A DNA stretch of 64,000 nt from Candidatus Poribacteria bacterium (GCA_965247285.1 CBDFHD010000002.1:548632-612631); one strand, 5' to 3'; positions 23,394 through 51,410 are shown, counted from the stretch's first letter. Made by a program: numbers and translations. Notes: generated by a model not told the origin, from the sequence alone.

Positions 23394-23478
23394 CACGTAA
23401 TGTAATGGAGTGCGGATATACGGAATGGAGCATGGATGCTCCAACCCACCTGACCGAACCGCAAGGAAAATTAAAAAT
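23394..23478 (+). repeat. intergenic leader-family element, copy 1 (GTAATGTAATGGAG loop hairpin ... AACCGCAAGGAAAATTAAAAA)
   Basis: Read from sequence. Its A/T tail contains the stop codon of the minus-strand TRAP gene. Confidence 0.6.
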
Positions 23479-25375
23479 ACGGTTCTGAGCGTTTCTGAAG
23501 GATGTACACAACCGCGACGAGTACTATAGCGATGACGAACGTCCAGATGTTATAGACGTATGCCAGGAACGCCGCAAGCGCAAGCAATATCCACTCATAC
23601 CAGCGCATCTTGCGGACGAAAAAGCCCACCGTTACAATGGAGAAGATAACTGTGCCCACGACAGCCGATACCACAGATAGTGCGTATTCCACCGGTGTGC
23701 CTCCTGTGAACAGGATGTGGGTATACGCAAACAGCAGCGGCATGATATAGAGAAGTTTAGAAAACTTGAAGCATGCCCATCCTGTTTTCCATGGATCGGC
23801 ACGGGCGATAGCTGCGGCTGCGTAAGCTCCCAAGGCGACCGGGGGCGTGATGTTGGAGTCTTGACTCAACCAGAAGATAATGAGGTGTGCAGCAATAATC
23901 GGTATGCCCATCTCTGGGGTTGTCAGGATCGGTACAGCGAGTTCAGAGGTAATCAGGTAGGCGGCAGTCACAGGAATTCCCATACCCAGAACTAAAGATG
24001 CCGCCGCAAGAAACAGAATTGCGATAACCTTGCTATCCTCCGCAACCAACAGCACTAAATTTGGGAATATCCGTCCTAAGCCTGTTAAATCTATAACAGC
24101 AACAATGATGCCGATAGTGCCAACCGCACCGCCAATGGCGATCGAATTCTTTGCCCCGGTCACCATCGCTTCCCAGATACGTTTCGGTGTGAGTCGTGTC
24201 TCTTTTCGGAAATAACTCACCGCAATTGTGGCAAGAATCGCGAAGAATGCCGCCTTATAAGCGGTATAGCCAGCGATTAAGATGCCGACAAGCGTCAGCA
24301 ACGGCAGTAAGTAATACCAACCACTTTTAAGGAGTGGCAGAAGTTTCGGGATTTCTGCGTCTGGTATCCGTTCTATTCCCTGCTTTTTCGCTTCGAAATG
24401 TACCATTACCCAAACGGAAAGGAAATAGAGAATCGCTGGCACGATGGATAAGAGGGCAATTTTACTATAGGGGAGTCCTGTCCGTTCTGCCATGAGAAAC
24501 GCACCTGCTCCCATCACGGGTGGTAGAAATTGCCCGCCTACGGAGGCGGAAGCTTCGACTGCACCAGCGATGTGCGGACGAAAACCGCTCCGTTTCATCA
24601 AGGGGATCGTGAACGTTCCAGTAGCGACTGTGTTTGCAATCGCACTTCCCGCGACAGAGCCAAAAAAACCGGAGGTCATGACCGAAACTTTCGCCGCTCC
24701 GCCAGTTGAACGTCCTGCTATCGACATCGGTAGGTTGATAAAGAATTGACCGACCCCCGATTTCTCCAGAAAAGCTCCGAAGAAGATAAAGAGAATCACG
24801 TACGTCGCCATCACGTTTGCCATGATGCCGAAGACCCCGGCTTGACTGAAAAAACAGTATTCGATAATCCTGCGAGGCGTAAGCCCACGGTGTGAGATGA
24901 CATCCGGCAAAAAACGACCGAAAAGGGCATATAGGATACCGATCACAGCGATAATAGGCAGTGCCCAACCGACCGTCCGACGGCTCACTTCAAAACTAAT
25001 CAGAATCGCGACCGCGCCTACGAAAATATCGAGTTGACTGTAATTGCCTGCCCGATTGGCGAGATTCGGGTACTCTACAATCCAGTAGCCGATGGTGAAG
25101 ATGCTGAGGGCAATCATGCCCAGGTCTATGAGTGATGGACGGGAGGCTGGGGAGTTCTTCCGACATCGGTAAAAGATGCCGATCAGCGCGAAGGTCAGCA
25201 GGAGATAGAAACCGAGATGGAATTGTTCACTGGCACTTCCAAACCCTGCACTGTAGATATAAAAGAGGACGAGGGCAGCTGCACCGAGTTCAAAAATCCA
25301 TTTATATATTTTTTCTAATTCAGTCCGTTGTGTGGTTTCAAAGCCAGCAACTTCTTTTGGTTCAGTCTGTGTCAT
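23471..25375 (-). CDS. TRAP transporter fused permease (DctQ-DctM-like, 4TM plus 12TM fusion)
   Basis: Highly hydrophobic 635-aa multi-pass protein with TRAP large-permease-like pattern. Start moved to ATG 25375 (SD GGAGG 5 nt upstream; MTQTEPKE...). Confidence 0.7.
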   Translation of the reverse strand: MTQTEPKEVAGFETTQRTELEKIYKWIFELGAAALVLFYIYSAGFGSASEQFHLGFYLLLTFALIGIFYRCRKNSPASRPSLIDLGMIALSIFTIGYWIVEYPNLANRAGNYSQLDIFVGAVAILISFEVSRRTVGWALPIIAVIGILYALFGRFLPDVISHRGLTPRRIIEYCFFSQAGVFGIMANVMATYVILFIFFGAFLEKSGVGQFFINLPMSIAGRSTGGAAKVSVMTSGFFGSVAGSAIANTVATGTFTIPLMKRSGFRPHIAGAVEASASVGGQFLPPVMGAGAFLMAERTGLPYSKIALLSIVPAILYFLSVWVMVHFEAKKQGIERIPDAEIPKLLPLLKSGWYYLLPLLTLVGILIAGYTAYKAAFFAILATIAVSYFRKETRLTPKRIWEAMVTGAKNSIAIGGAVGTIGIIVAVIDLTGLGRIFPNLVLLVAEDSKVIAILFLAAASLVLGMGIPVTAAYLITSELAVPILTTPEMGIPIIAAHLIIFWLSQDSNITPPVALGAYAAAAIARADPWKTGWACFKFSKLLYIMPLLFAYTHILFTGGTPVEYALSVVSAVVGTVIFSIVTVGFFVRKMRWYEWILLALAAFLAYVYNIWTFVIAIVLVAVVYILQKRSEPYF

Positions 25376-25493
25376 TTTTCCTCCACTGGGGTATTCCTTC
25401 AATAATTTTACATCAAATTGGCACAGAAGGCAACAGTTTTCAACTGAATAGGGCTATTGAGTTTTCCAGACATGCTTCAAGTCCGCTGGTTTG

Positions 25494-25604
25494 TAGTAAA
25501 GCCCGAAAATATGTGAACATACGGTTTAGGAACTTCCCTTCTCGCTGGCGAGGTTTCTAACCTCGCCCACGCTAATGTGTATAGATAATTATAGGTTTTA
25601 CTAT
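25494..25604. mobile_element. MITE-like element family B (TIRs TAGTAAAGCCC / GGTTTTACTA) carrying the CGCTGGCGAGG hairpin
   Basis: About 80 percent identical to the 34046..34160 element; both ends read from sequence. Confidence 0.55.
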
Positions 25605-25746
25605 ATTGCCCGTTATATACACCTTTAGAACGTGCGATGAATCGCACGACTACAACACATTCGCGCATTGAATACGGATGCTTGCCAAGAAAAGGCAGCT
25701 GTGATAGAATAGCAGTACGTCAACTGACTCAGGGAGGAGACACAAA

Positions 25747-26799: not shown

Positions 26800-26891
26800 C
26801 AGTCAGCAATTAGCAATCAGCCATCAGTAAAGCGGCTTCTGAGCAAATCGGAAGTCCGCGTGCTTCTATTTCTTCTGTTAAAGAGAAACCG

Positions 26892-26980
26892 TAGCCTGCA
26901 ACAACGGCGCAGGCGGATATACGGAGAGGCACGTGAGCATCTAAACCCACCTGACTGAACCGCAAGGAAAAATTAAAAAC
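26892..26980 (+). repeat. intergenic leader-family element, copy 2 (GCCTGCAACAACGGCGCAGGC hairpin ... AACCGCAAGGAAAAATTAAAAA)
   Basis: Read from sequence; immediately followed by a near-consensus promoter. Confidence 0.6.
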
Positions 26981-27015
26981 TTGACATTTTGTTTTGCATA
27001 ATATATAATTTAGGT
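26981..27015 (+). promoter_or_regulatory. near-consensus sigma70 promoter TTGACA, 17 nt, TATAAT upstream of the DtxR-family regulator gene
   Basis: cttgacattttgttttgcataatatataat read from sequence. Confidence 0.5.
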
Positions 27016-27157
27016 ATGCCTAAAATAATTTCTCAACATTTCTAACAATCTTGGTACGTAGTGCCTAAAACTGAATGGGTGTAACGCCCATACATTTACT
27101 TACCGCAGCGGGAAAACGAAGTGCATTGTCTGTTCCCTTTGCGGATTGGAAAGAACA

Positions 27158-27817: not shown

Positions 27818-28015
27818 CAGTAGGCTTTCGGTGAGTACCCTTCGACTCCGTTATAAGTGCTAAAGCACGAGTTGATGGTTAAGGTTATGAGAAAACCTTC
27901 TTTGTTCTGTACTGGCGAGGTAACCTCGTCCCCGCGAAGCCAGGCTGGCAGCCGATGGTTTCCGACTGCTATTAAGCTGTGAAGCGCGCTTATTACCACT
28001 AACGGGAGTCTAAAA

Positions 28016-29155: not shown

Positions 29156-29158
29156 ATT

Positions 29159-30118
29159 ATGCAAAGAATCTACATATCATTACTGTTAATGTTCATATTT
29201 GTGTATACTGGATGCGATCCAAAACAGCAGCCTGATGCTTCCACAGGAGGTAAACTTCGCATTGTCACAACGATCGGTATGATTACCGATATTGTAAAAA
29301 ATGTTGGTGGTGAACGCGTTGAGGTCACAGGATTGATGGGTCCCGGTGTAGATCCACACCTCTATAAGGCGAGTGCAGGTGATGTCCATAGGTTAACTTC
29401 AGCACAAATCATTTTCTTTAACGGACTGCACCTTGAGTCAAAAATGGGTGATATCCTTGCCAAGATGACAGGAAATACCAAGACTGTTGCCGTAACAGAT
29501 GCCGTTGACCGGAACTTACTGCTAACACCACCGGAATTTGAAGGGCAGTATGACCCGCATGTATGGTTTGACGTAACGCTTTGGATGAGAGCGGTGGGAA
29601 AGGTTCGCGATACCCTGAGTGAATATGATTCGGATAACACGCTCATGTACTGGAGCAATGCCGAACGCTACCTCGCGAAACTCGCGGAACTGCATGAGTA
29701 CGTGAAGGCACAGTCGGCACGCGTGCCATCTGAACAACGCGTACTCGTAACAGCACACGACGCTTTTAACTATTTCGGGAAGGCTTATGGGTTTGAGGTG
29801 CGCGGGCTACTGGGTATTAGCACCGCAACAGAGGCAGGTATTGCTGATGTCCAGGAATTGGCGACCTTTATAGCTGAGCGGCGCATTCCTGCAATCTTTG
29901 TGGAATCCTCTGTTTCGTCAAGGAGTCTTACAGCGGTCCAAGCAGCTGTCAACTCAAAAGGGGTTGATGTAAAAATTGGTGGTGAACTTTTCTCTGATGC
30001 TATGGGAAACAAGGGAACCCCTGAAGGCACTTATATCGGGATGGTTCGCCACAATATTGATACGATTGTGACTGCACTCATTGGGGGAACGTCCGCCAGT
30101 TCTATGGTGGGACCGTGA
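29159..30118 (+). CDS. metal (Mn/Zn/Fe) ABC transporter substrate-binding lipoprotein, TroA/ZnuA/MntC family
   Basis: Lipoprotein signal (VYTGC), cluster 9 substrate-binding-protein pattern (KLRIVTTIGMITDIVKNVGGERVEVTGLMGPGVDPHLY). Confidence 0.8.
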   Translation: MQRIYISLLLMFIFVYTGCDPKQQPDASTGGKLRIVTTIGMITDIVKNVGGERVEVTGLMGPGVDPHLYKASAGDVHRLTSAQIIFFNGLHLESKMGDILAKMTGNTKTVAVTDAVDRNLLLTPPEFEGQYDPHVWFDVTLWMRAVGKVRDTLSEYDSDNTLMYWSNAERYLAKLAELHEYVKAQSARVPSEQRVLVTAHDAFNYFGKAYGFEVRGLLGISTATEAGIADVQELATFIAERRIPAIFVESSVSSRSLTAVQAAVNSKGVDVKIGGELFSDAMGNKGTPEGTYIGMVRHNIDTIVTALIGGTSASSMVGP

Positions 30119-30587
30119 TACTACCCACAACCTAAAGGTTGGGGCTTCGGCTTCATAGCGACTGCGTTCTCACCAGAGGTTTGAACGTCTTATTGCCGCT
30201 CCACCCGCAGGCTCTTATTCCGAATCAGATCGGTTTTATCTGGTTTAGGTCCAGGGTACCCCAGCCTGCAAAATGATAAATGAGGAGGGTAGCGATACAA
30301 GGCGTAGGGTTATTACTCCACAATCGTCTTACATGAACGCTACCTAATAATTGATGTTTTACAAGGTCTCACTTGCAACTCGCCACATACCGTATCACGG
30401 GTAAGGATAGGACTCTACCAAGTGGTAGAGGTGATACTCCTATCCAGCAAGTTACATATAGAATACCATAATTTTAGGTAAATGTCAAGTTTATTTTGGT
30501 TTCCATAAACCCTAAGCCGTCTACATCCCGCAAGCTAAAGCATGGGGATTTGACGGAAGAGCGTTAAGGTGATAGAACAAAGTCCGT

Positions 30588-30675
30588 AGTTCGTAATGAA
30601 ATGGAGAGCGGGTTTCAGAACGGAGCGTCAAAGTTCAAACCCACATTGTTTAACCGCAAGGAATAATTAAATTAC
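30588..30675 (+). repeat. intergenic leader-family element, copy 3, ending directly at the ATG of the ABC ATPase
   Basis: TCGTAATGAAATGGAGAGCGG...TTAACCGCAAGGAATAATTAAATTAC-ATG. Sits within a 557-bp gap that splits the metal-transporter operon. Confidence 0.6.
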
Positions 30676-31416
30676 ATGCAAGCCTCGGAAACGAAAGCCA
30701 TTGAAGTAACGGATCTGACAGTTGCCTATCAAGATCAACCTGTTTTGTGGGATATCGATCTGGATGTGCCACCAAGCGTGCTTTTGGCAATCGTTGGTCC
30801 CAATGGCGCAGGCAAAACTACATTGATTAAGGCGATTTTAGGGTTAGTACGCCCCGCGGCAGGCAACGTCTTGATTTACGGCAAACCTTATGAAGCACAA
30901 CGCCGGATTGTTGGTTATGTCCCGCAACGGGGGAGCGTTGACTGGGATTTTCCAACAAACGTGCTGGATGTCGTCATGATGGGACGTTACGGCGCACTCG
31001 GATGGATGAGACGACCCGGGAAGCAGGAACGGGAACTCGCCATGCATGCGTTGGAGAAGGTTGGTATGGAGGCGTATACCAACCGACAAATTAGTCAACT
31101 CTCCGGCGGACAGCAACAACGTGTTTTCCTCGCTCGTGCCCTTGTTCAAGATGCTACGATATATTTGATGGATGAGCCTTTTCAAGGTGTTGATGCTACC
31201 ACGGAACGCGCGATTGTTACACTCCTTCAGGAATTCCGAGAAAAAGGGAAAACGGTTGTCGTGGTACATCACGATTTACAAACGGTAACGGACTATTTCG
31301 ATTGGGTGATGCTTTTGAACATTCGCCGGATTGCGAGTGGACCTGTTGGTGAAACGTTCACACCTGAAAATTTGCGTACAACTTACGGTGGTCGTGTCGC
31401 GTTTATGACAAAGTAG
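30676..31416 (+). CDS. metal ABC transporter ATP-binding protein (ZnuC/MntB/TroB-like)
   Basis: Walker [10 protein letters not shown], signature [12 protein letters not shown], Walker B IYLMDEP. Confidence 0.85.
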
Positions 31417-31478
31417 TAGGCATACTCCGTATGCCGTAACCAAAGCAGTAGGTGCGCTCTATGTGCCGTTCATAGATC

Positions 31479-32417: not shown

Positions 32418-32423
32418 GAAAAA

Positions 32424-33949: not shown

Positions 33950-34299
33950 ATGATTACAATGACGTATAAAGAATATATCGCTCAAATCGTTTATAGCGAA
34001 GAAGACGGTTGTTTCATCGGAGATCTTGTAGGTATTCGTGATATATAGTAAAGTCCAAAAATATGTGGACAGTTAGTCAGTGAACAACGACCCCACCGCC
34101 GCTGGCGAGGATTGTATCCTCGCCTCTTTAGAGCGTCCAAGTAATTATAGGCTTTACTATAATTAGTTTTCACGGTGATTCTCTTGAAGAGATTCGTACC
34201 GCTTTTGAAGAATCCGTTGATGATTACCTCTTAACGTGTCAAGAATTCAATCGCTCACCACAGAAGCCTGTTTATGCCAAAGAGACGACAGCGGACTGA
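33950..34299 (+). pseudogene. HicB-family (UPF0150) antitoxin gene interrupted by a 115-bp MITE
   Basis: 5' part 33950..34045 encodes MITMTYKEYIAQIVYSEEDGCFIGDLVGIRDI, then TAG formed by the MITE end. 3' part 34168..34299 encodes FHGDSLEEIRTAFEESVDDYLLTCQEFNRSPQKPVYAKETTAD. Together they give the HicB N-domain pattern (..EEDG....DLPG....GDTLEEA...). Confidence 0.6.
34046..34160. mobile_element. MITE-like element family B (TIRs TAGTAAAGTCC / GGCTTTACTA) inserted in the hicB-like gene
   Basis: Carries the TGAACAACGACCCCACCGCCGCTGGCGAGGATTGTATCCTCGCC core hairpin; homologous to 25494..25604. Confidence 0.6.
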
Positions 34300-34314
34300 T
34301 AGGAAAATTAAAAT

Positions 34315-36669
34315 ATGCTCCTTACGATGGGTATGGAAATAAATGGAAAAGCCATGAAACAAATCGGTTGGAAATGGTTTTTAGGAAGCGTTCTCCTTCT
34401 CAATATGGTATGGGTGGCAAGTGCCGATGAAGCCGCACTAAAAAATCCAGATGGCTCATGGAAGTGGACGAATCGGCTTATCCATGAAACCAGTCCTTAT
34501 CTGCTGCTCCATGCACATAACCCCGTAGAGTGGTATGCGTGGGGCGATGAAGCAGTGGAGCGTGCGAAGAAAGAAAATAAGTTAATTTTTCTCTCTGTCG
34601 GATACTCTACATGTTATTGGTGCCACGTCATGGAGCGGGAGGTCTTCTCAAATCCAGAAATTGCCGCTGTGATGAACAAGGACTTTATTAATATCAAGAT
34701 TGATAGAGAAGAACGTCCAGACTTGGACGAAATCTATATGACAGCGACGCAATTACTAATACAGCGCGGCGGATGGCCCAACTCTGTTTTCCTCACCCCT
34801 GATTTAAAGCCGTTTTATGCTGGCACCTATTTCCCACCGACGGATATGCCCGGCAGACCGGGGTTTCCAACGATCCTTGATGCGGTGCATGAAGCATGGG
34901 TAACGCGAGAGGCGGAAGTCATTGAATCCGCAAACCAGATTTTAAAAACTATTGAGTTGGCAACAAGCAGAGGGTTCACGGCACTCACTGCCACACCACT
35001 GGATAGATCGCTTACGACTGCTGCATTGGACTATCTCCGTACGACTTATAGTCACGCCTACGGTGGATTTGGTAGAGCCCCGAAATTCCCAAGTCCTGCC
35101 AATCTTGAATTTTTGCTCAGTGAATACGAGCGAAGATCGGGGTTACAAACCGCTCCCACAGAAGATGAATCGTTGTTAGAAATGGTGACGTATACGCTCG
35201 ATATGATGGCTTACGGTGGGATGTATGACCAGATAGGCGGCGGTTTTCACCGGTATTCTGTTGATGCAAAGTGGCTAATTCCGCATTTTGAGAAGATGCT
35301 TTACGACAACGCACAATTGGCGAAAGTTTATCTCCACGCCTATCAGTTAACACAAGAACCTCGCTATCGGCGTATTGCTGAAGAGATCTTCAGTTTCATT
35401 TTCCGAGAGATGACGGCACCTGAAGGTGGGTTTTACGCTGCTTTAGACGCTGAGACGGATGCCGAAGAGGGGAAGTATTACGTCTGGACTGCCGATGAGA
35501 TTCAGAAAATTCTCGGTAAGAAGAGTACCGCACGTTTTGCTGGTGTTTACGGCGTTGACAAGGGACCTAATTTTGAAGGTAAAAGTGTTCTCTATGTTCC
35601 TAATGGAGCAGCGGCGGAGGATGCGCTCAAGGAAGTAGAATCTGCGCGGGAGAAACTTTTAACGGCACGCTTTGATCGCGAATACCCCTTACTGGACACA
35701 AAAATCATTGTCAATTGGAACGGCTTGATGATAGACGCGCTCGCTTATGGCTATCAGGTGCTTGGTGAGGAGCGATATCTTATCGCTGCGTCAAAAGCTG
35801 CACAGTTTATTCTTGACACCCTGAAAAAACCGAATGGTGAATTGTGCCATGTTTATACTGCTGGTGTCGTAAAACAGGATGTGTATCTTGATGACTACGC
35901 CTTTTTTGTCCGAGGGTTGCTTGGATTGTATCGGGCTACAAGAGAAGAGCAGTGGTTGAATTCAGCGAAAAGACTGACTGATGCGATGATTCAACTTTTT
36001 TGGGCTGACAAAGATGGGGGCTTCTATTACACGAAGGCGGATGCAAAGCATCTTATTGTGCGGACCAAGAAACCTTATGACTCCGCTATTCCGTCTGGCA
36101 ATGCTGTCGCTGTCGCAAATCTTTTGGCATTTGGGACAGATTATCGAGGTTACGCTGAAGAAACCCTGCAGAGTTTCGCTCAATCTATGTCACAAAGCCC
36201 CTCGTCCTTCATGTATATGCATTTTGCTCTTAACCGCTATCTAACCGCAGGAGAAGAAATTGGTGCGGCAACGCCATCAATTTTAAGCGCGACCGCTGAA
36301 GTTAATGCCCAAAACAAAGGAATATACGATGTGATGCTTCAACTCAATATTGCTTCGGGTTGGCACATTAACGCAAACCCCGCGGGGCAAGACAATTTGA
36401 TTCCAACAACGATTACAGTGAACACAGATACCCCGTTAGAAATTGTCGATGTAGCGTATCCGAAAGGGAGATCGGCGCGTTTTGAATTTAGTAGCGAATC
36501 CTTGAATGTTTATGAAGAAAGTCTCACGATTCCGTTGCAGTTAAAACAGAAGCCGAATACGAAGCACGACAAAAACGTCGCAATTATCCTAAAACTCACC
36601 TATCAACTCTGTAATGAAACTGAATGTTTGTTGCCACAGACATTGGATATTCCGTTAGAGGTGCCGTAG
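34315..36669 (+). CDS. thioredoxin-domain protein YyaL/DUF255 family (thioredoxin plus six-hairpin glycosidase-like plus C-terminal domain), secreted
   Basis: [42 protein letters not shown] (DUF255 thioredoxin-like with CxxC). Conserved leader AGGAAAATTAAAAT precedes ATG 34315; signal-peptide logic favours an internal ATG near 34354 as the alternative start. Confidence 0.8.
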
Positions 36670-37673: not shown

Positions 37674-37943
37674 AATTGCACGTTTACATCCTACTTGTAG
37701 GCGCGACCTCCCGGTCGCGATACATCTTCGCTGGCGAGGTTTTCAACCTCGCTATGCCAACTGTACACGTAACACCGTTCAATACTAATTGATAGAGAGA
37801 ATAAAGATGTCTCAGCCTTCCACTGTTCCTACGCGAGTTCAAGAAACCCGATACCTTGTTTTGGATGATCGCCTCATTGACGAGGCGATCGCGGCGGAAC
37901 TTACCCTTATCAAGCAGCATGTTGAAGATGTCGCATGCTGTTT

Positions 37944-40224: not shown

Positions 40225-41624
40225 ATCGGTTGCCCTTGCATTGCTTCTGGAATGTCAATATCGAATTCGTTTAGGACTGTCGGGGCAATGTCGTATATGC
40301 TTTTAGCAGGCACGTTTCCGAGTTGTCGCGACCGGGAGGACGCTCCTACAGGGGCGTTTGACGCGGATTTGAAAATAAACATTCCCATCTCTGCATGGTT
40401 GCAATCGTCGGGACCGGTATCGTTTTCGTAGGTATAGATGCTGTTGTATCCGACGCTTCCGACCGAACGCCAAAAGAGGTTACCGAAGTAGACGATGAGA
40501 TCAGGAGCAATGTTTCGGCATTCTCGGTAGACCTCTTCAGGTTTAAAGACCCGTGTGCCGATGTTATGTCCCGCCTCGTCTACAATTGCTTCAAGTTGCA
40601 CCTTCAATTCATCGCGGATGCTGTCGTAATCTTGTGCGCTGACAATCCCGTTAGGTTCTCTGCCTTCAACGTTTATAAAAATTCGCGCGTAATACCCGCC
40701 CTCTCCCCACGCTTTTGTTTTTTCCCAGTCCACTAAATCCGCTGTCCATCGTGTAATTCCTTGCGGTTCGGTTTTAAGTGTCAGATAACCGTGCTTTCGG
40801 AGCCATTCATTGACACAGATACCCCCATCCATCCGTTTTGCGCCGTGATCGGAGACCACCATGACTGTGGTGTTTTCGTCCACACACGCTAACGTCTCTC
40901 CGAGTTCGACATCGAGGGTGTGGTAGTAGTTCCGCATCGTCTCCGAGAATGGCGAGTTCGGCTCATACGCACGGTGTGTTTTGTCCCAAAATCGCCAAAA
41001 GGCGTGGTGAAGCCGATCGGACCCCATTTCAACCATTGTAAAGAGGTCCCAGTCCTTTGTTTCAATCAGATAACGTGCGAGTTTGAAACGTTCGGTGGTC
41101 ATTTTGAGGAGTTGTTGCTCCAGCTCGGCGCGCCGATCCGTGCGAAAATTGGGAATATCGATCATGTAATCGCTGGAGACTTGTGCGATTTCGCGTGTCA
41201 GTCGCCGTGGAAAAGTCCATTGCGAATTGAGATTGGGTGTGAGGAAACTGGTAACCATCCATCCCGGGAACGGTTTCGCTGGGTAGGTGAGTGGCACTCC
41301 CAAAACGACTGATTTCTTTTCTGATTGTCCTAATAGATCCCAGAGTGTCGGCACTTTGACGGCGTGTGAGTTGGCGATGGTGAGCGCATCGTAGGAATAA
41401 TCCTTGCGGTTGCGGAAACCGTAGATGCCGAGTTCACCCGGATCACGGCTGGTCATCATGCACATCCACGCAGGAACGGTGATAGGCGGGATCGTGCTTT
41501 CCAATTCGCCATAGATGCTTTCTTCCATTAAACGACGTGTATTGGGCATATCGTCTTTGAACGCATCAAAGACAAGTTTAGGCTCCGCACAATCCCAACC
41601 GATAATAAGGACCCGTTTCTTCAT
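40221..41624 (-). CDS. alkaline-phosphatase superfamily protein (type I phosphodiesterase / nucleotide pyrophosphatase-like)
   Basis: N-terminal RVLIIGWDCAEP..., metal-ligand-rich core (MVVSDHGA); 3' end overlaps the S58 gene end by 4 nt (convergent). Confidence 0.65.
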   Translation of the reverse strand: MKKRVLIIGWDCAEPKLVFDAFKDDMPNTRRLMEESIYGELESTIPPITVPAWMCMMTSRDPGELGIYGFRNRKDYSYDALTIANSHAVKVPTLWDLLGQSEKKSVVLGVPLTYPAKPFPGWMVTSFLTPNLNSQWTFPRRLTREIAQVSSDYMIDIPNFRTDRRAELEQQLLKMTTERFKLARYLIETKDWDLFTMVEMGSDRLHHAFWRFWDKTHRAYEPNSPFSETMRNYYHTLDVELGETLACVDENTTVMVVSDHGAKRMDGGICVNEWLRKHGYLTLKTEPQGITRWTADLVDWEKTKAWGEGGYYARIFINVEGREPNGIVSAQDYDSIRDELKVQLEAIVDEAGHNIGTRVFKPEEVYRECRNIAPDLIVYFGNLFWRSVGSVGYNSIYTYENDTGPDDCNHAEMGMFIFKSASNAPVGASSRSRQLGNVPAKSIYDIAPTVLNEFDIDIPEAMQGQPI

Positions 41625-41662
41625 ATTTTTAACTATAAAATCTGGTCACCGTTCATTTTAAA

Positions 41663-42463: not shown

Positions 42464-42538
42464 AGGTTGATAGCTCCTATGTTAGTTTTGTGGTAAAGCA
42501 TAAAATACGTAGATATTTAAAGTCTAATAATTAGAAAA

Positions 42539-43894: not shown

Positions 43895-43945
43895 TTTTTA
43901 ATTGATTGCTCCTGGACTGCTCTCCATTTCATTACGAGCAGGTTT
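43895..43945 (-). repeat. short leader-family element (CTGCTC-GTAATGAAATGGA-GAGCAG hairpin plus AGGAGCAATCAATTAAAAA) directly 5' of the sulfatase ATG
   Basis: Read from the minus strand; covarying stem relative to copy 47410..47457. Confidence 0.6.
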
Positions 43946-43987
43946 TTGGTTAAACCGCAACGAATTTGCGAACTTGTACACGAACAC

Positions 43988-44077
43988 GAAGCCTGCAACA
44001 ACGGCGCAGGCGGCTCTACATAGAAGCACGTGAAGTCCCCAAACCGCGACACTTAACCGCAAGGTAAAATTAAAAAA
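43988..44077 (+). repeat. leader-family element copy (GCCTGCAACAACGGCGCAGGC ... CTTAACCGCAAGGTAAAATTAAAAAAA)
   Basis: About 80 percent identical to copy 26892..26980. Its A-tract provides the ...FF-stop end of the minus-strand FemAB-like gene. Confidence 0.6.
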
Positions 44078-45107
44078 ACTGCATCCATGTATAAATTTGG
44101 CGAAGTGCGCCCTCACTCTTTGTCCACAATGCTCTTTTCAGCGGTGAAATTACCTTTGTGTAACTGGCGAAATCTGTTCTTATGGCGCGATACTGTTCCT
44201 TATGCGCAATTAACCCTGTGTTCTCTGATGGCGATGCGCCGAAATCTACCCATTCGTATTGTTCACGACACGCCCGTGCGATGATGTGGTGGAAAATCGC
44301 GTTGTTAGGTCGATATTTCAAGAATGCTGGCACAGATGCTTCACACCACAACGTTACGGTCTTATTGAAGCGTAGATAGAGCAATCCTGCGATAACAGTG
44401 CCACGGTATGTAGCGATAGCAAGTTTGGCGATTTTCCGCTGCAGGAGTGTCTGCATAAGTGCCTGCGGTTTCGGCGTGCCACCTAACCGTTTTACTGTCA
44501 TGAGATACATGTCGTAAAAGGTGGATAAAGCCTCTTCACTGTCTGTGTCCGTGACTGTCACACCCGATTTCTCTGCCTTCCTGATCGCGCCCCGTACCCG
44601 TTTGTTATAGGCGTGCCAGAGGGATTCAACATCTCCGTTCGTTTTCAGAAAATGCGTGAAGTGATCTGTGCGTTTGTAGCCCATTTCAACGAATAGATCG
44701 CCGTAAGTCACCATTTGCTTAGGTGTCAGTGTCCAACGAATTTCACACCATCCCTTTGCTGCTGCTGCGGATTCGATGGATGTTATCAGTGATTCAGGGT
44801 TTATTTGCACTGATTCGATGAGGTGTACACCTCCAAATAAGTTCCACGGCATTGAATGCCATAGACGGATGCCCGGTATCGGTTGAAAGACGAAGGCGGG
44901 CAGCCCTCCTATCACTGAGTCATCTTGATTGATGAGTAGGTAAGTCGGGCGTAGGGGTTGGGTAACCCAACCCCTACCAAACGCGCCCGCTAATGCATCT
45001 CGCCACGCGAGACTTTGGAAAGCAGTCGTATCTGGAGATTGCCGAAGAATGGCATCCCATTTATCCTGATTTTGAGGGGTCAAAGAATCTAAGGTGTACA
45101 CATGCAC
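44070..45107 (-). CDS. FemAB-like / GNAT-fold acyltransferase (Acetyltransf_6-type)
   Basis: About 345 aa with the duplicated-GNAT FemAB-like pattern; assignment by recollection. Confidence 0.5.
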   Translation of the reverse strand: MHVYTLDSLTPQNQDKWDAILRQSPDTTAFQSLAWRDALAGAFGRGWVTQPLRPTYLLINQDDSVIGGLPAFVFQPIPGIRLWHSMPWNLFGGVHLIESVQINPESLITSIESAAAAKGWCEIRWTLTPKQMVTYGDLFVEMGYKRTDHFTHFLKTNGDVESLWHAYNKRVRGAIRKAEKSGVTVTDTDSEEALSTFYDMYLMTVKRLGGTPKPQALMQTLLQRKIAKLAIATYRGTVIAGLLYLRFNKTVTLWCEASVPAFLKYRPNNAIFHHIIARACREQYEWVDFGASPSENTGLIAHKEQYRAIRTDFASYTKVISPLKRALWTKSEGALRQIYTWMQFF

Positions 45108-45147
45108 ATCTTGTAGGAGCGAGCTCCAGCTCGCGATTCCTATAGAG

Positions 45148-46086: not shown

Positions 46087-46164
46087 CTTTTTAATTTTCC
46101 TTATGGAAGTGTTAAGAATAGACAACACAGAGAGGATAGGTATTTTTTATAAATCAAAAAACCA

Positions 46165-46250
46165 AACCTGTAATGTAATGGAAGGTGACCTTTAAGAAAG
46201 GCACGTCCCTCTCCAAACTCCCGTTATCTCTCCGCAAGGTATAATTAAAG
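46165..46250 (+). repeat. leader-family element copy (ACCT-GTAATGTAATGGA-AGGT hairpin ... CCGCAAGGTATAATTAAAG)
   Basis: Read from sequence; paired with an opposite-orientation partial copy about 50 bp downstream. Confidence 0.55.
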
Positions 46251-46295
46251 CAGTTCGATGGACGTGCTTAGGAAATTGACATGCCTTTCCATAGA

Positions 46296-46362
46296 GTCGT
46301 CCTCCATTACATTTCGGACTTGCGATCTTTAGTTAATTTTCTAATTTTCCTTGCGGTTTGGT
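46296..46362 (-). repeat. leader-family element, rearranged or opposite-orientation copy (GTCC-GAAATGTAATGGA-GGAC hairpin; CCGCAAGGAAAATTAGAAAATT)
   Basis: Read from the minus strand. Confidence 0.5.
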
Positions 46363-46401
46363 AAAGTAGGTTAGAGCATTGACATTTATCTCCATTTACC
46401 A

Positions 46402-47409
46402 TTAAAGGGGTAACGGAACGGATTGCCCGCTCTCAACAGATTGGTACGCGGCTAATGCGATTTCGGCGGCGGCGCGACCGTCTAAGCCTGTAATGGGGGG
46501 AGACGTGTCGTTACGGATTGCGTCTACGAAGACACGAATCTCTTCTTGAACCGGTGACGGCACCTTTATATCTGCTACTTTAATCTGCCGCCCTTCACCC
46601 TCAAAAGGTTTAATCTGGATGGCTGCATCGCCGCCCCAGATCTGTGGAAAATAGATGGAGCCGCCTTCACAATCGACGCGTCCGCCATACCCACCAGCAG
46701 CGGAGACATGGCTGGAGTGGAGCAAGCCAACTGCTCCGTTTGCAAACTGTAAGGAAGCAAGCACAACATCTGGATAGTCGCTCTTATCTGGTCCGTATTG
46801 TCCGCCGGCGGCATAGACAGCAGTGACATCTCCACAGGTCCAGCGCATAAAGTCAATTTCATGGGCATTGATTTCCATGAGACTCCCACCAGACTTCGCA
46901 CGTTCCAGTCGCCACGGCGTGTGACTGTACCCGCTACGCCACGGTCCGCCGATGCGATGCACCATCATACAGGCGGGTGCCCCGAGTTCACCACTCTGCA
47001 CAATTTCGCGAACAACGGAATGCGTGCCGTGGTAACGACATACCAAACCGATCGTAAGTTTGACACCATTTTCATCTGCGGCGGCAATCATCGCGTCGCA
47101 GGCATCCAATGTAGGTGCCATCGGCTTTTCGGAAAAGACGTGTTTGCCTGCGTTCGCGGCATCAACTGCCATCTGTGAGTGCATAAACGGTGGGGACGCG
47201 ATTAGGACCGCACGAATCCGATCATCGGCGAGTAATTCGTGGTAATCCAGTGTATAGGACGTACCGAGGTCTGTGGCAAGTTTTTCAGCCAGTGCTTCTT
47301 GCACATCACTAACAGAGATAACTTCTATTCCGTCAACGGCGTGTGCGCTGGTGGCAAGGCTTCTGCCCATGCCGCCGCATCCGATAAGGCCAACTCCAAT
47401 CGTTTCCAT
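46402..47409 (-). CDS. Gfo/Idh/MocA family oxidoreductase
   Basis: METIGVGLIGCGGMGRS Rossmann motif; EKPMA motif; conserved leader upstream. Confidence 0.85.
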   Translation of the reverse strand: METIGVGLIGCGGMGRSLATSAHAVDGIEVISVSDVQEALAEKLATDLGTSYTLDYHELLADDRIRAVLIASPPFMHSQMAVDAANAGKHVFSEKPMAPTLDACDAMIAAADENGVKLTIGLVCRYHGTHSVVREIVQSGELGAPACMMVHRIGGPWRSGYSHTPWRLERAKSGGSLMEINAHEIDFMRWTCGDVTAVYAAGGQYGPDKSDYPDVVLASLQFANGAVGLLHSSHVSAAGGYGGRVDCEGGSIYFPQIWGGDAAIQIKPFEGEGRQIKVADIKVPSPVQEEIRVFVDAIRNDTSPPITGLDGRAAAEIALAAYQSVESGQSVPLPL

Positions 47410-47457
47410 TTTTAATTTATCGCTCCTCGGCTGCCCTCCATTTCATTACGGGCAGGT
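47410..47457 (-). repeat. short leader-family element (CTGCCC-GTAATGAAATGGA-GGGCAG hairpin plus AGGAGCGATAAATTAAAA) directly 5' of the Gfo/Idh/MocA ATG
   Basis: Stem covaries with 43895..43945 (CTGCTC/GAGCAG versus CTGCCC/GGGCAG). Confidence 0.6.
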
Positions 47458-47569
47458 TTTCGTCCTTCCTCTCCTGCTTTTTTAAAATTGAGCAGTTCAA
47501 AAACAACTGCATCCAAAACACTAAGCCTGAAACGAAGTGGAAGGGTTTTTGCTTGGGTGTTTCTTCAAC

Positions 47570-47630
47570 GCTATACAGAGGCACGTGAATGCCTAACCAA
47601 CGTTACTTAACCTCAAGGTAAATTAGAAAA
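47570..47630 (+). repeat. leader-family element copy (GGCACGTGAATG ... CTTAACCTCAAGGTAAATTAGAAAATT)
   Basis: Abuts or overlaps the stop of the minus-strand LamG gene. Confidence 0.5.
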
Positions 47631-48530
47631 TTATCTCCGTCTGGCTTTGATATGTCCCCATGTAACGCTCAGGTGGCTTGCAGAAGGACTGACATCAAGC
47701 CCTGTGGCTTCCATGTTGTTCTGGACTTCTGCTGCACTTAGAACGCGATCGTAAATTCGGAATTCGTCGATATATCCCTGAATTGTATCGCAATCGCATC
47801 CATCTGACCGATCCCCGATGCCGAGGAGGAGCCCTCCCTTTGGGATTTTACCGCCCTTCATGGCATACTTTTTTTCGAGTTTTCCATTCACATAGTAGTG
47901 AACCATGTTGCCATCGTAGGTGCCGGTGAGGTGCAGCCACTCTTCAAGTGGAATATCCTCCAGTACATTGTCTTGTGCTGCCACCGTTGATTGACCACCC
48001 GCTCTAATGAAGAAACCGTGCTGGTTATCGTCATCATCGTAATAGAGGCTTACGACTGCGCTGTTCGTTGGCATATCGTCAAGTGAGATAATCCGGTTCC
48101 AACTGTCATCCAAGGCGTTAATATAGACCCAACATTCCAGGGTGATTTCCTCCCAATCACGGTCGATTTTGGGTGGGTTTGAATCTTCAACGAGAAAGCG
48201 GTCAACACTGCCATCAAAAAGAATGCACTCACCGACTTTACAATCGGAGGCGGGTGCGAGTTCGGGATCCCCGTGGACAGCTGCCGCGAGTCCTGACAAG
48301 AGATCTACCGCCTCAGTTTTAATTTTTACTGTGTCTTTGTCGAAGGTCCAATAGGCGACTAAGCCATTTTCAACCGCTCCGATGATTGCCTCGGTGGGTT
48401 GCGCGTTCCATGCAAGGAACGCGATAAGGAGAAGGGCGAATGCGCGTTTGGCATTCGCAAAGACTGTAAAGAACCGTGAATTTTCCACAAAATATCTGCT
48501 CTGAAAACGGGTGCCGTTCTGTAGACGCAT
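47631..48530 (-). CDS. secreted LamG-like jellyroll protein
   Basis: Laminin_G_3-like pattern; C-terminus ...SASHLSVTWGHIKARRR carries the family motif. Confidence 0.7.
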   Translation of the reverse strand: MRLQNGTRFQSRYFVENSRFFTVFANAKRAFALLLIAFLAWNAQPTEAIIGAVENGLVAYWTFDKDTVKIKTEAVDLLSGLAAAVHGDPELAPASDCKVGECILFDGSVDRFLVEDSNPPKIDRDWEEITLECWVYINALDDSWNRIISLDDMPTNSAVVSLYYDDDDNQHGFFIRAGGQSTVAAQDNVLEDIPLEEWLHLTGTYDGNMVHYYVNGKLEKKYAMKGGKIPKGGLLLGIGDRSDGCDCDTIQGYIDEFRIYDRVLSAAEVQNNMEATGLDVSPSASHLSVTWGHIKARRR

Positions 48531-48595
48531 GATTCATTTCCTCCTTCAGAATAGCGGTCAGCAAAGAAAAAAGGGATTTGAACGTTCAATCCGTC

Positions 48596-48660
48596 TTAAC
48601 TTTAACCATCAACTCGACTCCGATATAAGACAACAAAGCACGAGTTGATGGTTAAGTCTG
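48596..48660. repeat. inverted repeat with 15-bp stem TTAACCATCAACTCG ... CGAGTTGATGGTTAA (partial second copy at 27843..27884)
   Basis: Read from sequence; both copies are intergenic. Confidence 0.5.
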
Positions 48661-48681
48661 ATAGCCGACAGCTGAAAGCCA

Positions 48682-50076
48682 TTAAAACGTGTCACGCATG
48701 GCGCGTCTTCGTTGATCCGCGATTTGGCGTTCACGTTCCGCATCAGACTGCTGACCATGGGGTCCAGCACTGAGCGGACGGTATTCGGAGACCTCACTCT
48801 TCCGTTTGAATACTCGGAAGAAATCGAAACGGGTTAAGGTTGGCGGAATATTCCCCGGACACAGCGAATGTAGTCCAACATGTACCGACTTTCCCATGCC
48901 AACATTCGTTTGTCCACAGCTTTTCCACTGAATGCTATCGCTACTGGCGAAAGCCGAGAACTGGTTCCCTCTGCGTTCCATACGTAAGAAAAGTTCACGT
49001 ACATCTCTGAGTCCACTGCCGCGTCCACGTAAGTTAAATGAACGTCCGACGTGGCGTTCAAAACGGACATCACCTCTGAATGCGTGTGGTCCCGAGGTTT
49101 TCTCAAGTCTGAGGAATTGATTGGGATTTTTCCATACCAATAAGCCACCGTGTTCTTTCAGTTCTGGCGAGATTCGCATGCGAGTTTCAATAGCGAAGTC
49201 TCCAACGACTTCCATGAGGAGACGTGGTGCACTCATATCGCCGCTTCTACCGTCCGGACCGTGCCAAAGGTCTTGCCCGGGTTCAGTCTTCATTTCTAAG
49301 TAGCCTTGGCGTTCTGCCCAGGAACCGCCGCCTTTCGGGTCGTCCCATCGCCATTCCGGACGCATACGGTTTCCGATGAACTCATCTTCAAATACCATCT
49401 CTGTGAACTCGCCGGAAGATGCCCATCCTTCAATCTTCACAGCGGAGATAGAATCCCCGAAGTTTTGAGGGAGTAAATGGAGGTTCGGCAACTCCTTCTT
49501 ATATTCCGACGGTTCCATACGGATGGGTAGGGGCATGCCCTCAAAGTCAGGGTGTTCGTAAAAGACGACCTCCGCTCCGTGTGGCGGGAAATCCGGTCCT
49601 TTGGAAATACGGATTGACGAAATCCGGTCTTCAAACCAAGTTCCGCCTTGGGCATCCCGCAGGTTGGCGATGTCGCGCAGGATAGTGATTTTTCTGCCGC
49701 GGAATTCGACGTGTTCGTAGCAATCCACAATCAGGGGGATAGTGCCCCATTCTGGTCCAACCACTTCCAGTGTGGAACCGAAGTTGATTGATGAGATTCT
49801 GTCGGCGAAGTTGTAAGAGGTATCGTGCAGGTTCGGATAAAATCCGGGACCGAGTGCTAATTTTTGACCGTGGAAGTTACCGTGCTGATAAAAGATGACT
49901 TTATAGTTCGGATTCGACGAGAAGTTTGGTCCCTTATACACACGGACAGAAGATATATTGTCTTGAAATCCGATGGTTTGCGTCTGCTGAACAGGCTCCA
50001 CAACATATCCCATTCTGCCCCGGAAGTTTGTGTGTTGGAACACCTCAACAACAAGGCGGGGTATGACGATTGGCAT
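48682..50076 (-). CDS. beta/gamma-crystallin-like repeats plus concanavalin-like (DUF1349/DUF1080-type) domain protein
   Basis: Two crystallin-like Greek-key repeats (YKVIFYQHGNFHGQKLALGPGFY..., VVFYEHPDFEGMPLPI...), then WRWDDPKGGGSWAERQGYLEMKTEPGQDLWHG..APRLLMEV..DFAIETRM. Confidence 0.4.
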   Translation of the reverse strand: MPIVIPRLVVEVFQHTNFRGRMGYVVEPVQQTQTIGFQDNISSVRVYKGPNFSSNPNYKVIFYQHGNFHGQKLALGPGFYPNLHDTSYNFADRISSINFGSTLEVVGPEWGTIPLIVDCYEHVEFRGRKITILRDIANLRDAQGGTWFEDRISSIRISKGPDFPPHGAEVVFYEHPDFEGMPLPIRMEPSEYKKELPNLHLLPQNFGDSISAVKIEGWASSGEFTEMVFEDEFIGNRMRPEWRWDDPKGGGSWAERQGYLEMKTEPGQDLWHGPDGRSGDMSAPRLLMEVVGDFAIETRMRISPELKEHGGLLVWKNPNQFLRLEKTSGPHAFRGDVRFERHVGRSFNLRGRGSGLRDVRELFLRMERRGNQFSAFASSDSIQWKSCGQTNVGMGKSVHVGLHSLCPGNIPPTLTRFDFFRVFKRKSEVSEYRPLSAGPHGQQSDAERERQIADQRRRAMRDTF

Positions 50077-50220
50077 TTTCTTCTCCTTTTATGGAAATTA
50101 TACCAATGATGGCATAATTTGCCTTTACTTTACATTCTTGTAAGCATTGCCTACGTATTCTTTGTGTGTTTTCCGTTGCAACGTGGGAAACCAAAATCAG
50201 TTTCCTATATCTGTTTGTCT

Positions 50221-51318
50221 TTATGTATCACCGAGAATTGCCTCATAAATTTGAGCATATCCACTTCGATCGGATGTGAATACAACATGCTTGCCATCCG
50301 GACTGAAAGACGGATGTGGATGTGTATGCTGTGGTGCGTAAACCTGAATTGGACCAGCGGCATACGGGAACGGTCCGTTCCAATGCTCGCCAATAGACGA
50401 GGCGTTGGGATAGCATAACGTCTGAGGTTCGCCAATACCATCACGTGGATCGAAAATTTGGATACCAATATCTGGGAAGTTAGTGTCTGCTACCATAAGT
50501 GTTCCAGCAGAATTACTAATGGCATGCCATGCGTTGAACGTTGTCACTTGTCGGGCTATTCCGGTATCGGCGTTGATACACCTCACGCCGCGGGGCCAAT
50601 CGACAAAAGCGAGTTCACGCGTTCCTGGGATCCAGGTTTCATGTGTGATCCATTCGTTCTTTTCGACGTTACGGGCATAGAGACGACGGTTACCCGTTCC
50701 GTCGCGATGGATTACCCACACTCGATCAGTAAGGGGACCCGCATAGTAGAGCAGGTTGGAATCGTCGGGACAGAATTGAAGGTGTCCGATACTCTCTCTC
50801 CGCAAGATGATATCGTGCCCGCCGGTGTCTGTGTCTATAATAGCGAGTGCGGATTCTTTACCGATGTTGAATCTGACAGCCCACCATCGATTATCGTGAC
50901 TCAAGGCGGTAGTGCCCATAGCGGCGGCTACCATACCTTCTTCCCGCATCGCCGTTGCTGCGAAATTGACAAGTTCGTGCGCTTCAAGCGTCTCCAAATC
51001 TACTTTCCATCCGCTTGTGCCTGCTGTGAAGTAGACTGCTTTTCCATCGCGCGAGGGATGCACCGACCACTCGGCGAGGTCAGGTCTATCTGTTAATTGG
51101 CGGAGTTCACCCGTGGTGCGTTCTTCTGCGAATATCTGCGGTGTCCCTGTTCGGTATGAGACAAATATGAGCCGTTGCATCGCGTCGTCATACGCAGGTA
51201 TGATGAAGAATGGATGGTGGTGCAGCGCGGATGCAGTCGTCACCTGTCGGATTTGTGTTCCGGTGCGTTGGTCGACAAAGGTTCGAGATTCAGAAGGATG
51301 AACTGTGCCTTTCGCCAT
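50221..51318 (-). CDS. beta-propeller protein, oligogalacturonide-lyase-like / TolB-like
   Basis: Start moved to ATG 51318 (MAKGTVHPSE...), which has the conserved leader CCGCAAGGAAAATTAAAAGA upstream. The ORF-track 5' extension to 51390 is probably not translated. Confidence 0.45.
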   Translation of the reverse strand: MAKGTVHPSESRTFVDQRTGTQIRQVTTASALHHHPFFIIPAYDDAMQRLIFVSYRTGTPQIFAEERTTGELRQLTDRPDLAEWSVHPSRDGKAVYFTAGTSGWKVDLETLEAHELVNFAATAMREEGMVAAAMGTTALSHDNRWWAVRFNIGKESALAIIDTDTGGHDIILRRESIGHLQFCPDDSNLLYYAGPLTDRVWVIHRDGTGNRRLYARNVEKNEWITHETWIPGTRELAFVDWPRGVRCINADTGIARQVTTFNAWHAISNSAGTLMVADTNFPDIGIQIFDPRDGIGEPQTLCYPNASSIGEHWNGPFPYAAGPIQVYAPQHTHPHPSFSPDGKHVVFTSDRSGYAQIYEAILGDT

Positions 51319-51410
51319 TCTTTTAATTTTCCTTGCGGTTAAACGACGTGGTCTGTCTTTGAGCGTCCTTTTCTTAAATCCGTCTTCCATTTCATTTCAG
51401 ACTACGTTTT
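51319..51410 (-). repeat. leader-family element copy providing the 5' leader of the 50221..51318 gene
   Basis: Minus strand reads CGTAGTCTGAAATGAAATGGAAGACGG...CGTTTAACCGCAAGGAAAATTAAAAGA-ATG. Confidence 0.6.

Follow-up and report, generated by a model that had tools for sequence, protein, structure and literature searches.

The closest functional analogue of the element described here is REP2 of Neisseria, together with the IR sequences of Borrelia plasmids. These are intergenic units of ∼100 to 150 bp that lack terminal inverted repeats (TIRs), carry one or more stem-loops near the 5′ end, and bear at the 3′ end a ribosome-binding site (RBS) fused to the starts of diverse open reading frames (ORFs), with a shared 5′ leader (PMC3184786). 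The same architecture, with a putative RBS, recurs in a family of intergenic elements that we found in a 64-kb stretch of DNA from a Candidatus Poribacteria bacterium (GCA_965247285.1, CBDFHD010000002.1:548632-612631; this whole stretch is called the window below). REP2 has its own promoter and two stem-loops, occurs at ∼25 copies per genome, precedes co-regulated genes, and is found at the level of a genus, whereas the poribacterial element has one hairpin of interchangeable types and no conserved promoter, extends across the phylum, and precedes unrelated genes. With REP2 compared by description, the element is a small interspersed repeat that carries expression signals and lies outside any named family.

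Three further groups of small repeats share part of this profile. GTAG-type repetitive extragenic palindromes (REPs) and bacterial interspersed mosaic elements (BIMEs), with their REP-associated tyrosine transposase (RAYT), resemble the element in having a tag before a palindrome, several classes, inverted pairs (copies D/E and H/I in the window), ends that donate stop codons, and compensatory changes that keep pairing (PMC3733652, PMC8266576). GTAG REPs, however, are 20 to 40 bp long, lie mainly downstream of ORFs in unidirectional or convergent gaps, and have no RBS; in the element, the hairpin is one module of an oriented unit of ∼100 nt that is flush with starts and depleted from convergent gaps, and pairing extends to the final G of the tag. 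Mycobacterial interspersed repetitive units (MIRUs) resemble the element as 40- to 100-bp units between operon genes that are oriented with transcription, co-transcribed, in contact with flanking ORFs, and present or absent between related species (PMC3184786). MIRUs differ in containing a small ORF that overlaps both neighbors (translational coupling) and in forming variable-number tandem repeats; no embedded ORF of this type was found in the element, whose stop-codon content equals that of shuffles and which touches an ORF with its 3′ end only. Correia elements, which are Neisseria MITEs (transposable elements of the miniature inverted-repeat type), are likewise small and intergenic, alter adjacent expression, and vary between genomes (PMC2649163), but they have TIRs, a TA target duplication, outward promoters, and sites for IHF and RNase III. 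Among the hallmarks of MITEs, presence or absence at orthologous sites was found for the element, while TIRs and target-site duplications were not.

The reading that we favor, at a probability of about 0.6, is that the elements are modular noncoding interspersed repeats specific to Poribacteria that act as portable translation-initiation cassettes. The 3′ module would supply the Shine-Dalgarno sequence and spacer, and with them the initiation region, for any gene that it abuts: a match to AAGG(A), a fixed, unstructured, A/U-rich spacer of 12 nt, and then the host gene's own ATG. The element as a whole would be a portable intercistronic expression cassette, located mainly inside strings of co-directional genes, whose copies may have been gained, lost, truncated, duplicated, and recombined on the time scale of species divergence.

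A profile hidden Markov model (HMM) made from six copies in the window, when searched against the window, gave 9 significant matches (E values of 1e-23 to 4e-6), with copies D and H matching weakly. In the window there are 7 full copies of ∼100 nt and 2 half copies, plus a related short form of ∼60 nt that is present twice; the profile search found no copies in the 64 kb outside positions 23.3 to 51.5 kb. Allowing one mismatch, we counted 7 instances of the loop motif GTAATGWAATGGA in the window, versus 0.23 expected by chance; the 3′ module, with up to three mismatches allowed, has 6, versus none by chance. An earlier note on this DNA had listed ten positions for the element, and by the profile HMM and these chance controls each falls within a real copy. 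Scanning 185,579 species genomes for the pattern AACCGCAAGGWAWAWTWA returned at least 114 stretches. Of those listed, 102 are labeled Poribacteria, and four, from the unlabeled metagenome-assembled genomes CAZQIP and CAZGAW, have profile matches to full or partial elements; in the eight from other named taxa, nothing beyond the pattern resembles the element. Profile searching of the 114 loci (each designated L plus a number) and the window gave 167 matches, including 105 of full length, from the window and 33 assemblies; 158 copies lie outside the window, in the examined loci of the 33 further assemblies. Among the matches listed, the family is restricted to Poribacteria, a phylum of sponge symbionts, and its copy number per genome is probably in the hundreds. 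Rfam 15 returned no match at the gathering score for the whole window and none at E values of up to 1 for positions 30050 to 30720, which span the 557-bp gap discussed below, a check that the earlier note had suggested; full-text literature searches returned nothing relevant on repeats, mobile elements, or CsrA in Poribacteria. We regard the family as an undescribed, phylum-wide, abundant, and cleanly structured member of a known category.

The anatomy of the element was derived from an alignment of 80 full long-form copies and one of 15 short-form copies, including D and H. The long form consists, in order, of an A-rich stretch of ∼9 bases with weak conservation, a tag resembling GTAG (exact in 39/80 copies; NNAG in 95%), the hairpin, a body (CGGATATACGGAAAGGCACGT...AAACCCACCTGACCGAA), and the 3′ module, in which CCGCAAGG precedes 12 A/T-rich nucleotides that end in AAAAA. 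In the window, CCGCAAGG is unchanged in 7 of 8 copies. The tag's final G is paired with column 49 in 97.5% of copies. Taken by itself, the hairpin module measures 21 to 30 nt with palindromic stems, while the whole conserved unit of ∼100 nt is oriented. The short form, which has no GTAG tag, reads yTAACCGAAAACC, a 6-bp stem enclosing a type 1 loop, and CCAGGAGCnATMAATTAAAAA. Long-form bodies fall into two linked subfamilies, TACGG...CGAACCGC and TTAAG...TTTAACCGC, and the hairpin type is independent of them (32/21 versus 14/5). The GGCACGTGA box that had been singled out as a separate component is plainly part of the conserved body. A role of the element as a translational insulator was tried and rejected, stops in all three frames being present in 42/80 copies versus 58% in shuffles.

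The junction of the element with start codons is exact, and its orientation bias is strong. We examined 160 copies with a 3′ module for starts that open ORFs of at least 80 amino acids: a start codon lies 18 to 30 nt after CCGCAAGG in 92 of them, with the ATG at exactly +20 in 58, and in ∼12 further copies a tandem duplication of the 3′ module places the start at +31 to +41. In ∼10 copies, an opposite-strand ORF has its TAA at +12/+13, within ATTAAAA. The spacer between GG and ATG is 12 nt in 58/84 copies, regardless of the shifting position of an internal TT. Of the 71 full sense copies that lie between co-directional genes, 65 reach the downstream start, with the stop of the upstream gene 30 to 200 nt away; full antisense copies touch a stop codon in 11 of 14 cases. 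About 30 further starts, including those at 34315 and 46086 in the window, are preceded by a solo 3′ module with neither hairpin nor body. A crude ORF model allowed 150 copies to be classified by intergenic gap: 112 sense and 18 antisense copies lie in co-directional gaps, 17 copies in divergent gaps, and 3 (2%) in convergent gaps, the gaps overall being 499 co-directional, 77 divergent, and 91 convergent (14%). This scarcity in convergent gaps and the distance from the upstream stop are not the location expected of REPs. Short-form copies show no clear bias (6 versus 5 in the two orientations). Other genes in the window have GGAG or GGAGG 7 to 13 nt before the start, and because they are led by Shine-Dalgarno sequences at this distance, AAGGA at 11 nt falls within the organism's range. 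From this geometry, and by analogy, we infer that AAGG-N12-ATG would drive initiation.

Comparison of orthologous sites revealed gain, loss, and remodeling of copies. Four loci are syntenic with the window at 78 to 89% nucleotide identity. The stop of the znuA-like gene and the start of the ABC ATPase gene are 2 nt apart in L087 (TAAGCATG) and ∼50 nt apart in L089; in the window, 557 nt separate them, and the last ∼100 are copy C. The proposal that this gap splits a Mn/Fe transporter operon was borne out, since the insertion is absent from L087 and L089 and the element stands at its 3′ end. Between the ATPase and permease genes, the distribution is reversed: L087 and L089 each have an element there, with different hairpin types, and the window has none. 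Copy J, together with ∼140 nt more, is absent in L072, where an identical ATGGCGAAAGG start follows a different upstream sequence. The orthologue of copy G1 is full length in L072; in L074 it is truncated to the same extent and abuts the ATG of the UxuA-like gene. In the window, a block of ∼240 nt (G2 plus the antisense copy F) has been inserted into the 3′ module of G1, leaving AAGGAAAATTA on both sides; the block is absent from L074, and F, G1, and G2 are nested fragments. The TAG stop of the L074 orthologue (...CAG-TAG) coincides exactly with the beginning of copy E, from which the window protein gains Phe-Phe-stop. In all comparisons of filled and empty sites, the junction is at an ATG or a stop codon. 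Duplicated 3′ modules (∼20 nt, part of the element) flank the F/G2 insertion and ∼14 other copies.

Mean identity between copies is 0.627 within genomes and 0.614 between genomes and exceeds 0.9 only in local tandem duplicates. Recent transposition bursts were ruled out, as two copies from one genome resemble each other no more than two from different genomes do. Given the orthologous presence and absence, the truncations, the low within-genome likeness, and the lack of TIRs and target-site duplications, we conclude that this is an old family with slow turnover and recombining modules, in which the 3′ module persists at sites where a gene depends on it. The retention of the 3′ module where hairpin and body have been lost indicates selection on that module. 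The element had also been proposed to be a mobile carrier of a promoter or RBS. Presence and absence, together with antisense, truncated, nested, and tandem copies, favor a mobile RBS-carrying element, and the promoter was not found: no consistent sigma-70 site emerged among the 80 copies, of which only 25 reach 8/12 matches, with the −10 half in the terminal A/T tract or just past the element.

Pairing in the hairpin is conserved despite changes in sequence. Among the 80 long copies, pair 20-49 is GC in 71, AU in 4, and GU in 3; pair 21-42 is CG in 59 and UA in 14; pair 22-41 is CG in 61 and UA in 12; and pair 23-40 is CG in 40, UA in 38, and UG in 2, with no copy unpaired. The covariation score is 0.426, versus 0.236 in shuffles (0/500 as high), and falls to at most 0.18 when the partners are slid. 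The 6-bp stem of the short form is paired in 15/15 copies, with up to four pair types per position. Covarying stems, as first noticed in a few window copies, are thus upheld in both alignments. The loop, which had been taken as invariant, is not: it contains an inner pair that covaries (CG in 55, UA in 20), closes a three-base loop, and is flanked by conserved noncanonical positions (G.A, U.G, and A.G), and there are several loop types, GNAAYGNARTGGA in ∼55/80 copies, GCAACANCGGCGC in ∼20/80, and CAAACAACGTGCC in 3. What had been described as an added second hairpin, GCCTGCAACAACGGCGCAGGC, turned out to be an alternative hairpin type at the same alignment position. Position 25-38 is U-G, C-G, or U-A in 58/80 copies, with U-G pairs on the sense strand only. 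An outer helix, CCGTA/TACGG, around the hairpin was considered and rejected, as it occurs in one subfamily only and shows no covariation by eye.

Selection for pairing and the small number of conserved loop classes are the signature of a protein-recognized structure, and we infer that the hairpin is one. A tyrosine transposase could use it as a single-stranded DNA substrate, in the manner of REPs, or it could be an RNA element serving stability or acting as an operator; the sense-strand-only alternation of U-G and C-G at 25-38, together with the orientation bias, leaves room for an RNA role (stability, processing, or operator). RNAalifold on the aligned copies found no conserved helix other than the hairpin, and single-sequence folds were no more stable than shuffles (z of −1.3 to +1.7), so the body is conserved as sequence and not as structure. 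The 3′ module is unpaired in all predicted folds.

A T/G-rich insert of 24 nt stands immediately after the hairpin in 25/105 full copies, copy I included, and grows in some loci into a microsatellite of 12- to 13-nt units. This subfamily has UUUUUGCUU after the hairpin, which resembles an intrinsic terminator or attenuator, and the U-rich tract may attenuate read-through there. The insert (GTTTTTGCTTGGGTGTTTCTTCA; 47545-47568 in the window, noted also in L065, L068, L070, L078, and L099) forms tandem arrays of 12 to 13 nt with several G-runs, and its presence differs between orthologous copies (L057 versus L109 and L021 versus L051).

Several observations weigh against portable initiation cassettes. 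About half of the window's copies are not leaders, and ∼40% of all copies are not flush with a start codon. As a Shine-Dalgarno sequence, AAGGA matches less well than the GGAG(G) of neighboring genes; in the short form, GGAG stands 13 to 14 nt before the ATG, at the limit of the range; and WAWAWT at −12 to −7 from the A of the ATG is placed as a −10 box would be in a leaderless transcript's promoter. The putative Shine-Dalgarno role is read from geometry, orientation, orthologous retention, and analogy. The hairpin is thermodynamically weak, with 4-bp stems. Near-identical copies within one genome were not found apart from local tandem duplicates; TIRs were not found, 4 to 5 of 24 positions at the consensus ends being complementary; target-site duplications were not found, flanking k-mer sharing equaling the mismatched control except in four tandem-array cases; and tblastn found no transposase in 0.94 Mb, nothing scoring below an E value of 1 with E. 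coli RayT and IS200 TnpA as queries, a weak test. With no transposase found, the term "mobile" derives solely from presence and absence between species.

Much of the same evidence can be read in other ways. The loop GNAAYGNARUGGA might be the operator of an RNA-binding protein, in the manner of iron-responsive elements or CsrA, and the family a self-spreading, phylum-wide translational control module, that is, a global post-transcriptional regulon in which hundreds of unrelated genes come under one control of translation or stability. The contacts would be ANGGA motifs: AUGGA in the hairpin, ACGGA in the body, and AAGGA at the Shine-Dalgarno position. The loop is indeed kept while stems vary, in two element families and across 33 assemblies plus the window; the base pairs at 25-38 fit an RNA; sense orientation is favored 6:1; and GGA motifs recur in the hairpin and at the RBS (AUGGA in type 1 hairpins, AAGGA or CAGGA at the Shine-Dalgarno position), 13 to 60 nt apart. 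There are, however, at least three discrete loop types, and GGA is absent from type 2 (GCAACAACGGCGC, ∼20/80) and type 3 hairpins; hairpin types are swapped at orthologous sites, as between L087 and L089; and many solo 3′ modules function without a hairpin. The idea of a functionally coherent regulon found no support either, as the 103 downstream proteins carry 135 Pfam families and the commonest (PhyH, ABC_tran, AP_endonuc_2, GFO_IDH_MocA, and Sulfatase) are also at the top in 104 control ORFs. The 3′ module alone could explain the orientation bias, which the short family lacks (6 versus 5), and tblastn found no csrA-like gene in 0.94 Mb, a weak test. We consider such a regulon unlikely. If it existed, any gene that received an insertion would, with the fixed 12-nt spacing of its RBS, join a single post-transcriptional circuit of global reach; this uncultivated sponge symbiont would then have a bacterial counterpart of the iron-responsive-element system, borne by a mobile repeat.

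The 3′ module invites a different doubt, namely, that WAWAWT is a −10 box and the element a portable promoter from which leaderless mRNAs start at the A of the ATG. The hexamer does lie at −12 to −7 in the modal copy, TATAAT and TAAAAT versions are frequent, the ATG position is sharply peaked, and such a promoter would account for expression downstream of the terminator-like subfamily. Yet there is no conserved −35 box or TG extension, and in the 25/80 copies with an 8/12 sigma-70 match the −10 half does not fall on WAWAWT at −12 to −7. The conserved distance is that from GG to ATG, not from the last T to ATG; a −10 box alone leaves the invariance of CCGCAAGG unexplained; neighboring genes are clearly led by Shine-Dalgarno sequences; and most copies stand within co-directional gene strings. 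We hold this to be highly unlikely. Finally, the family could be purely selfish or neutral REP-like DNA, the hairpin being the substrate of a RAYT, the remainder of the unit a passenger, and the junctions a reflection of insertion-site preference and not of function. The GTAG-like tag before the hairpin, other GTAG-tagged palindromes in the window, and the head-to-head, BIME-like hairpin pairs D/E and H/I would fit, as would several hairpin classes, which recall REP classes with cognate RAYTs, and antisense copies flush with stops, as reported for GTAG REPs (PMC3733652). Against this stand a distribution opposite to that of typical REPs (convergent gaps depleted, copies flush with starts, distance to the upstream stop variable), the lack of recent near-identical copies, and the failure to find a RAYT in 0.94 Mb, again a weak test. 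The 3′ module, moreover, outlives hairpin and body at orthologous genes (G1 in L074 and the window, L087 at 2279, and ∼26 solo CCGCAAGG modules). Selfish DNA seems distinctly unlikely as a full account.

If the elements are portable translation-initiation cassettes, a substantial part of the genes in an uncultivated candidate phylum would owe their initiation region to a single family of repeats, a compact natural case of repeats that distribute expression signals. Insertions would remodel operons, as in the split metal-transporter operon, and gene callers would place starts wrongly, as at 51390 and 46128 in the window. The starts at 51318 and 46086, which the earlier note had preferred to these longer ORFs, are supported by a Pfam match from residue 25 of the long ORF and by orthologues in L072 and L074 that begin at the same ATG. 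The hairpin would be a clean candidate for a protein-recognized nucleic acid structure, the element could serve as a diagnostic sequence marker for Poribacteria in metagenomes, and its defined 5′ leader could be tried in heterologous expression of symbiont genes.

Genes flanking the window copies encode a sulfatase, Gfo/Idh/MocA oxidoreductases, xylose-isomerase-like barrels, PhyH, a ZnuA/ABC-3 metal transporter, and a DtxR-family repressor. The elements had been described as preceding genes; this is so for copies C, J, D, and H and the solo modules before 46086 and 34315 but not for A, B, E, F, G1, G2, and I. Copy C, a full long copy on the plus strand (30570..30675; profile match, 30578-30673), has its hairpin at 30589-30609 and a 3′ module at 30651-30675 that abuts ATG 30676 of the ABC ATPase gene. 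Copy J, full long on the minus strand (51319..51421; profile, 51412-51319), has a GTCT/AGAC hairpin at 51382-51402, and its 3′ module (51319-51342) abuts ATG 51318 of a beta-propeller (oligogalacturonate-lyase-like) gene. The two short-family copies are on the minus strand. In copy D (43895..43950), the hairpin at 43917-43941, with a 6-bp CTGCTC/GAGCAG stem, is followed by CCAGGAGCAATCAATTAAAAA, flush with the sulfatase ATG (43894). Copy H (47409..47465) has a CTGCCC/GGGCAG hairpin at 47431-47455 and then CCGAGGAGCGATAAATTAAAA, and its A-rich end overlaps the A of the ATG (47409) of a Gfo/Idh/MocA gene. The solo module ATAAGGAAAATTAAAAAG (46087..46103, minus strand) abuts ATG 46086 of the UxuA-like gene and is a duplicate of the end of G1, with the F/G2 insertion between them; a solo start region resembling the 3′ module, ATAGGAAAATTAAAAT (34299..34314, plus strand), abuts ATG 34315 of a DUF255/YyaL-like gene.

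The remaining copies lie otherwise. Copy A, full long on the plus strand (23375..23478; profile, 23382-23478), has a GCAC/GTGC hairpin at 23393-23413 and a 3′ module (23457-23477, plus strand) antisense to a DctM-family gene, whose TAA stop (23471-23473, minus strand) is provided by ATTAAAA. Copy E, full long on the plus strand (43973..44078; profile, 43981-44076), has a type 2 hairpin at 43991-44011 and is antisense to the flanking genes; a FemAB-like gene takes its final two codons and its TAA stop (44070-44072) from the A-rich end. Copy F, full long on the plus strand (46147..46251; profile, 46155-46250), has an ACCT/AGGT hairpin at 46166-46186, is antisense, and overlaps tail to tail with G2, a 5′ half element on the minus strand (46262..46334; profile, 46322-46262) with a GTCC/GGAC hairpin at 46299-46319. 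Copy G1, the 3′ ∼60 nt of an old element (46338..46400; profile, 46385-46340; minus strand), starts 3 nt past the stop of a Gfo/Idh/MocA gene. The long copy I (47506..47633; profile, 47514-47629; plus strand) is antisense, with a hairpin at 47526-47544, immediately followed by the T/G-rich insert, and an A/T-rich end that contains the stop of a Laminin_G_3 gene (47631-47633).

Copy B, full long on the plus strand (26876..26979; profile, 26884-26979), has the type 2 hairpin GCCTGC-AACAACGGC-GCAGGC at 26894-26914, and no start codon follows its 3′ module (26958-26979). A 12/12 sigma-70 promoter (26981-27009) of a DtxR/MntR-family gene begins 2 nt downstream. The A-rich end of the copy is therefore directly 5′ of the −35 box of a perfect TTGACA-17-TATAAT promoter (26958-27009 for both), and its A-tract occupies the usual place of a promoter UP element. 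At the position of copy B, L087 has a 3′ module alone (at 2279), and element-promoter adjacency resembling that of copy B also occurs at L091 5724 and L053 3557. In L081 (∼2807, minus strand), the 3′ end of an element is flush with the 3′ end of a tRNA gene. The znuA-like stop and copy C are separated by a unique 462-nt sequence (30119-30580) that the syntenic loci L087 and L089 lack. It has no repeat in any locus, no Rfam match, and no ATG-started ORF of 25 or more amino acids; its RNA is predicted to fold more stably than shuffled versions (z of −2.86), and a sigma-70-like site is present on the minus strand at 30488-30460. The element-free ATPase-permease gap of the window (31417-31478) contains two small GTAG-headed hairpins, GTAGGCATACTCCGTATGCC and GTAGGTGCGCTCTATGTGCC.

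Other repeats are present in the window. GTAG-tagged palindromes CTGTAGGAGCGAGCTCCAGCTCGCGA lie at 37690-37720, 45106-45136, 52676-52706, and 55013-55043 (plus strand) and at 40326-40350 (minus strand), which points to a genome that harbors REP-type elements in general. A small hairpin repeat, TCGCTGGCGAGGTTTCTAACCTCGC, stands at gene ends (15953-15977, 25542-25566, 34099-34123, and 37728-37752). Another, ACATTGTCCCGTAAGCCTCTATAGGCTTGC, occurs at 51530-51563 and in L039 (4946), L053 (3557), L110, L079, and L096; in L039 and L053 it is nested inside the hairpin loop of the element. Arrays of 8- to 9-nt units (AATCCGCG/CGCGGATT) at 57496-57598, 58052-58172, 58314-58361, 58506-58638, and 62269-62319 occur in both orientations and form long inverted repeats between genes; the unit is also found beside expanded T/G-rich inserts in L014, L060, and L068. 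Two dispersed repeats were seen, one of 123 nt at 97% identity (13438-13560 and 57341-57463; also twice in L009 and in L060) and one of 118 nt at 86% identity (58345-58462 and 62301-62418). A 21-nt tandem repeat of 5 to 6 units at 52835-52960, in an ORF-dense region, is probably a coding repeat.

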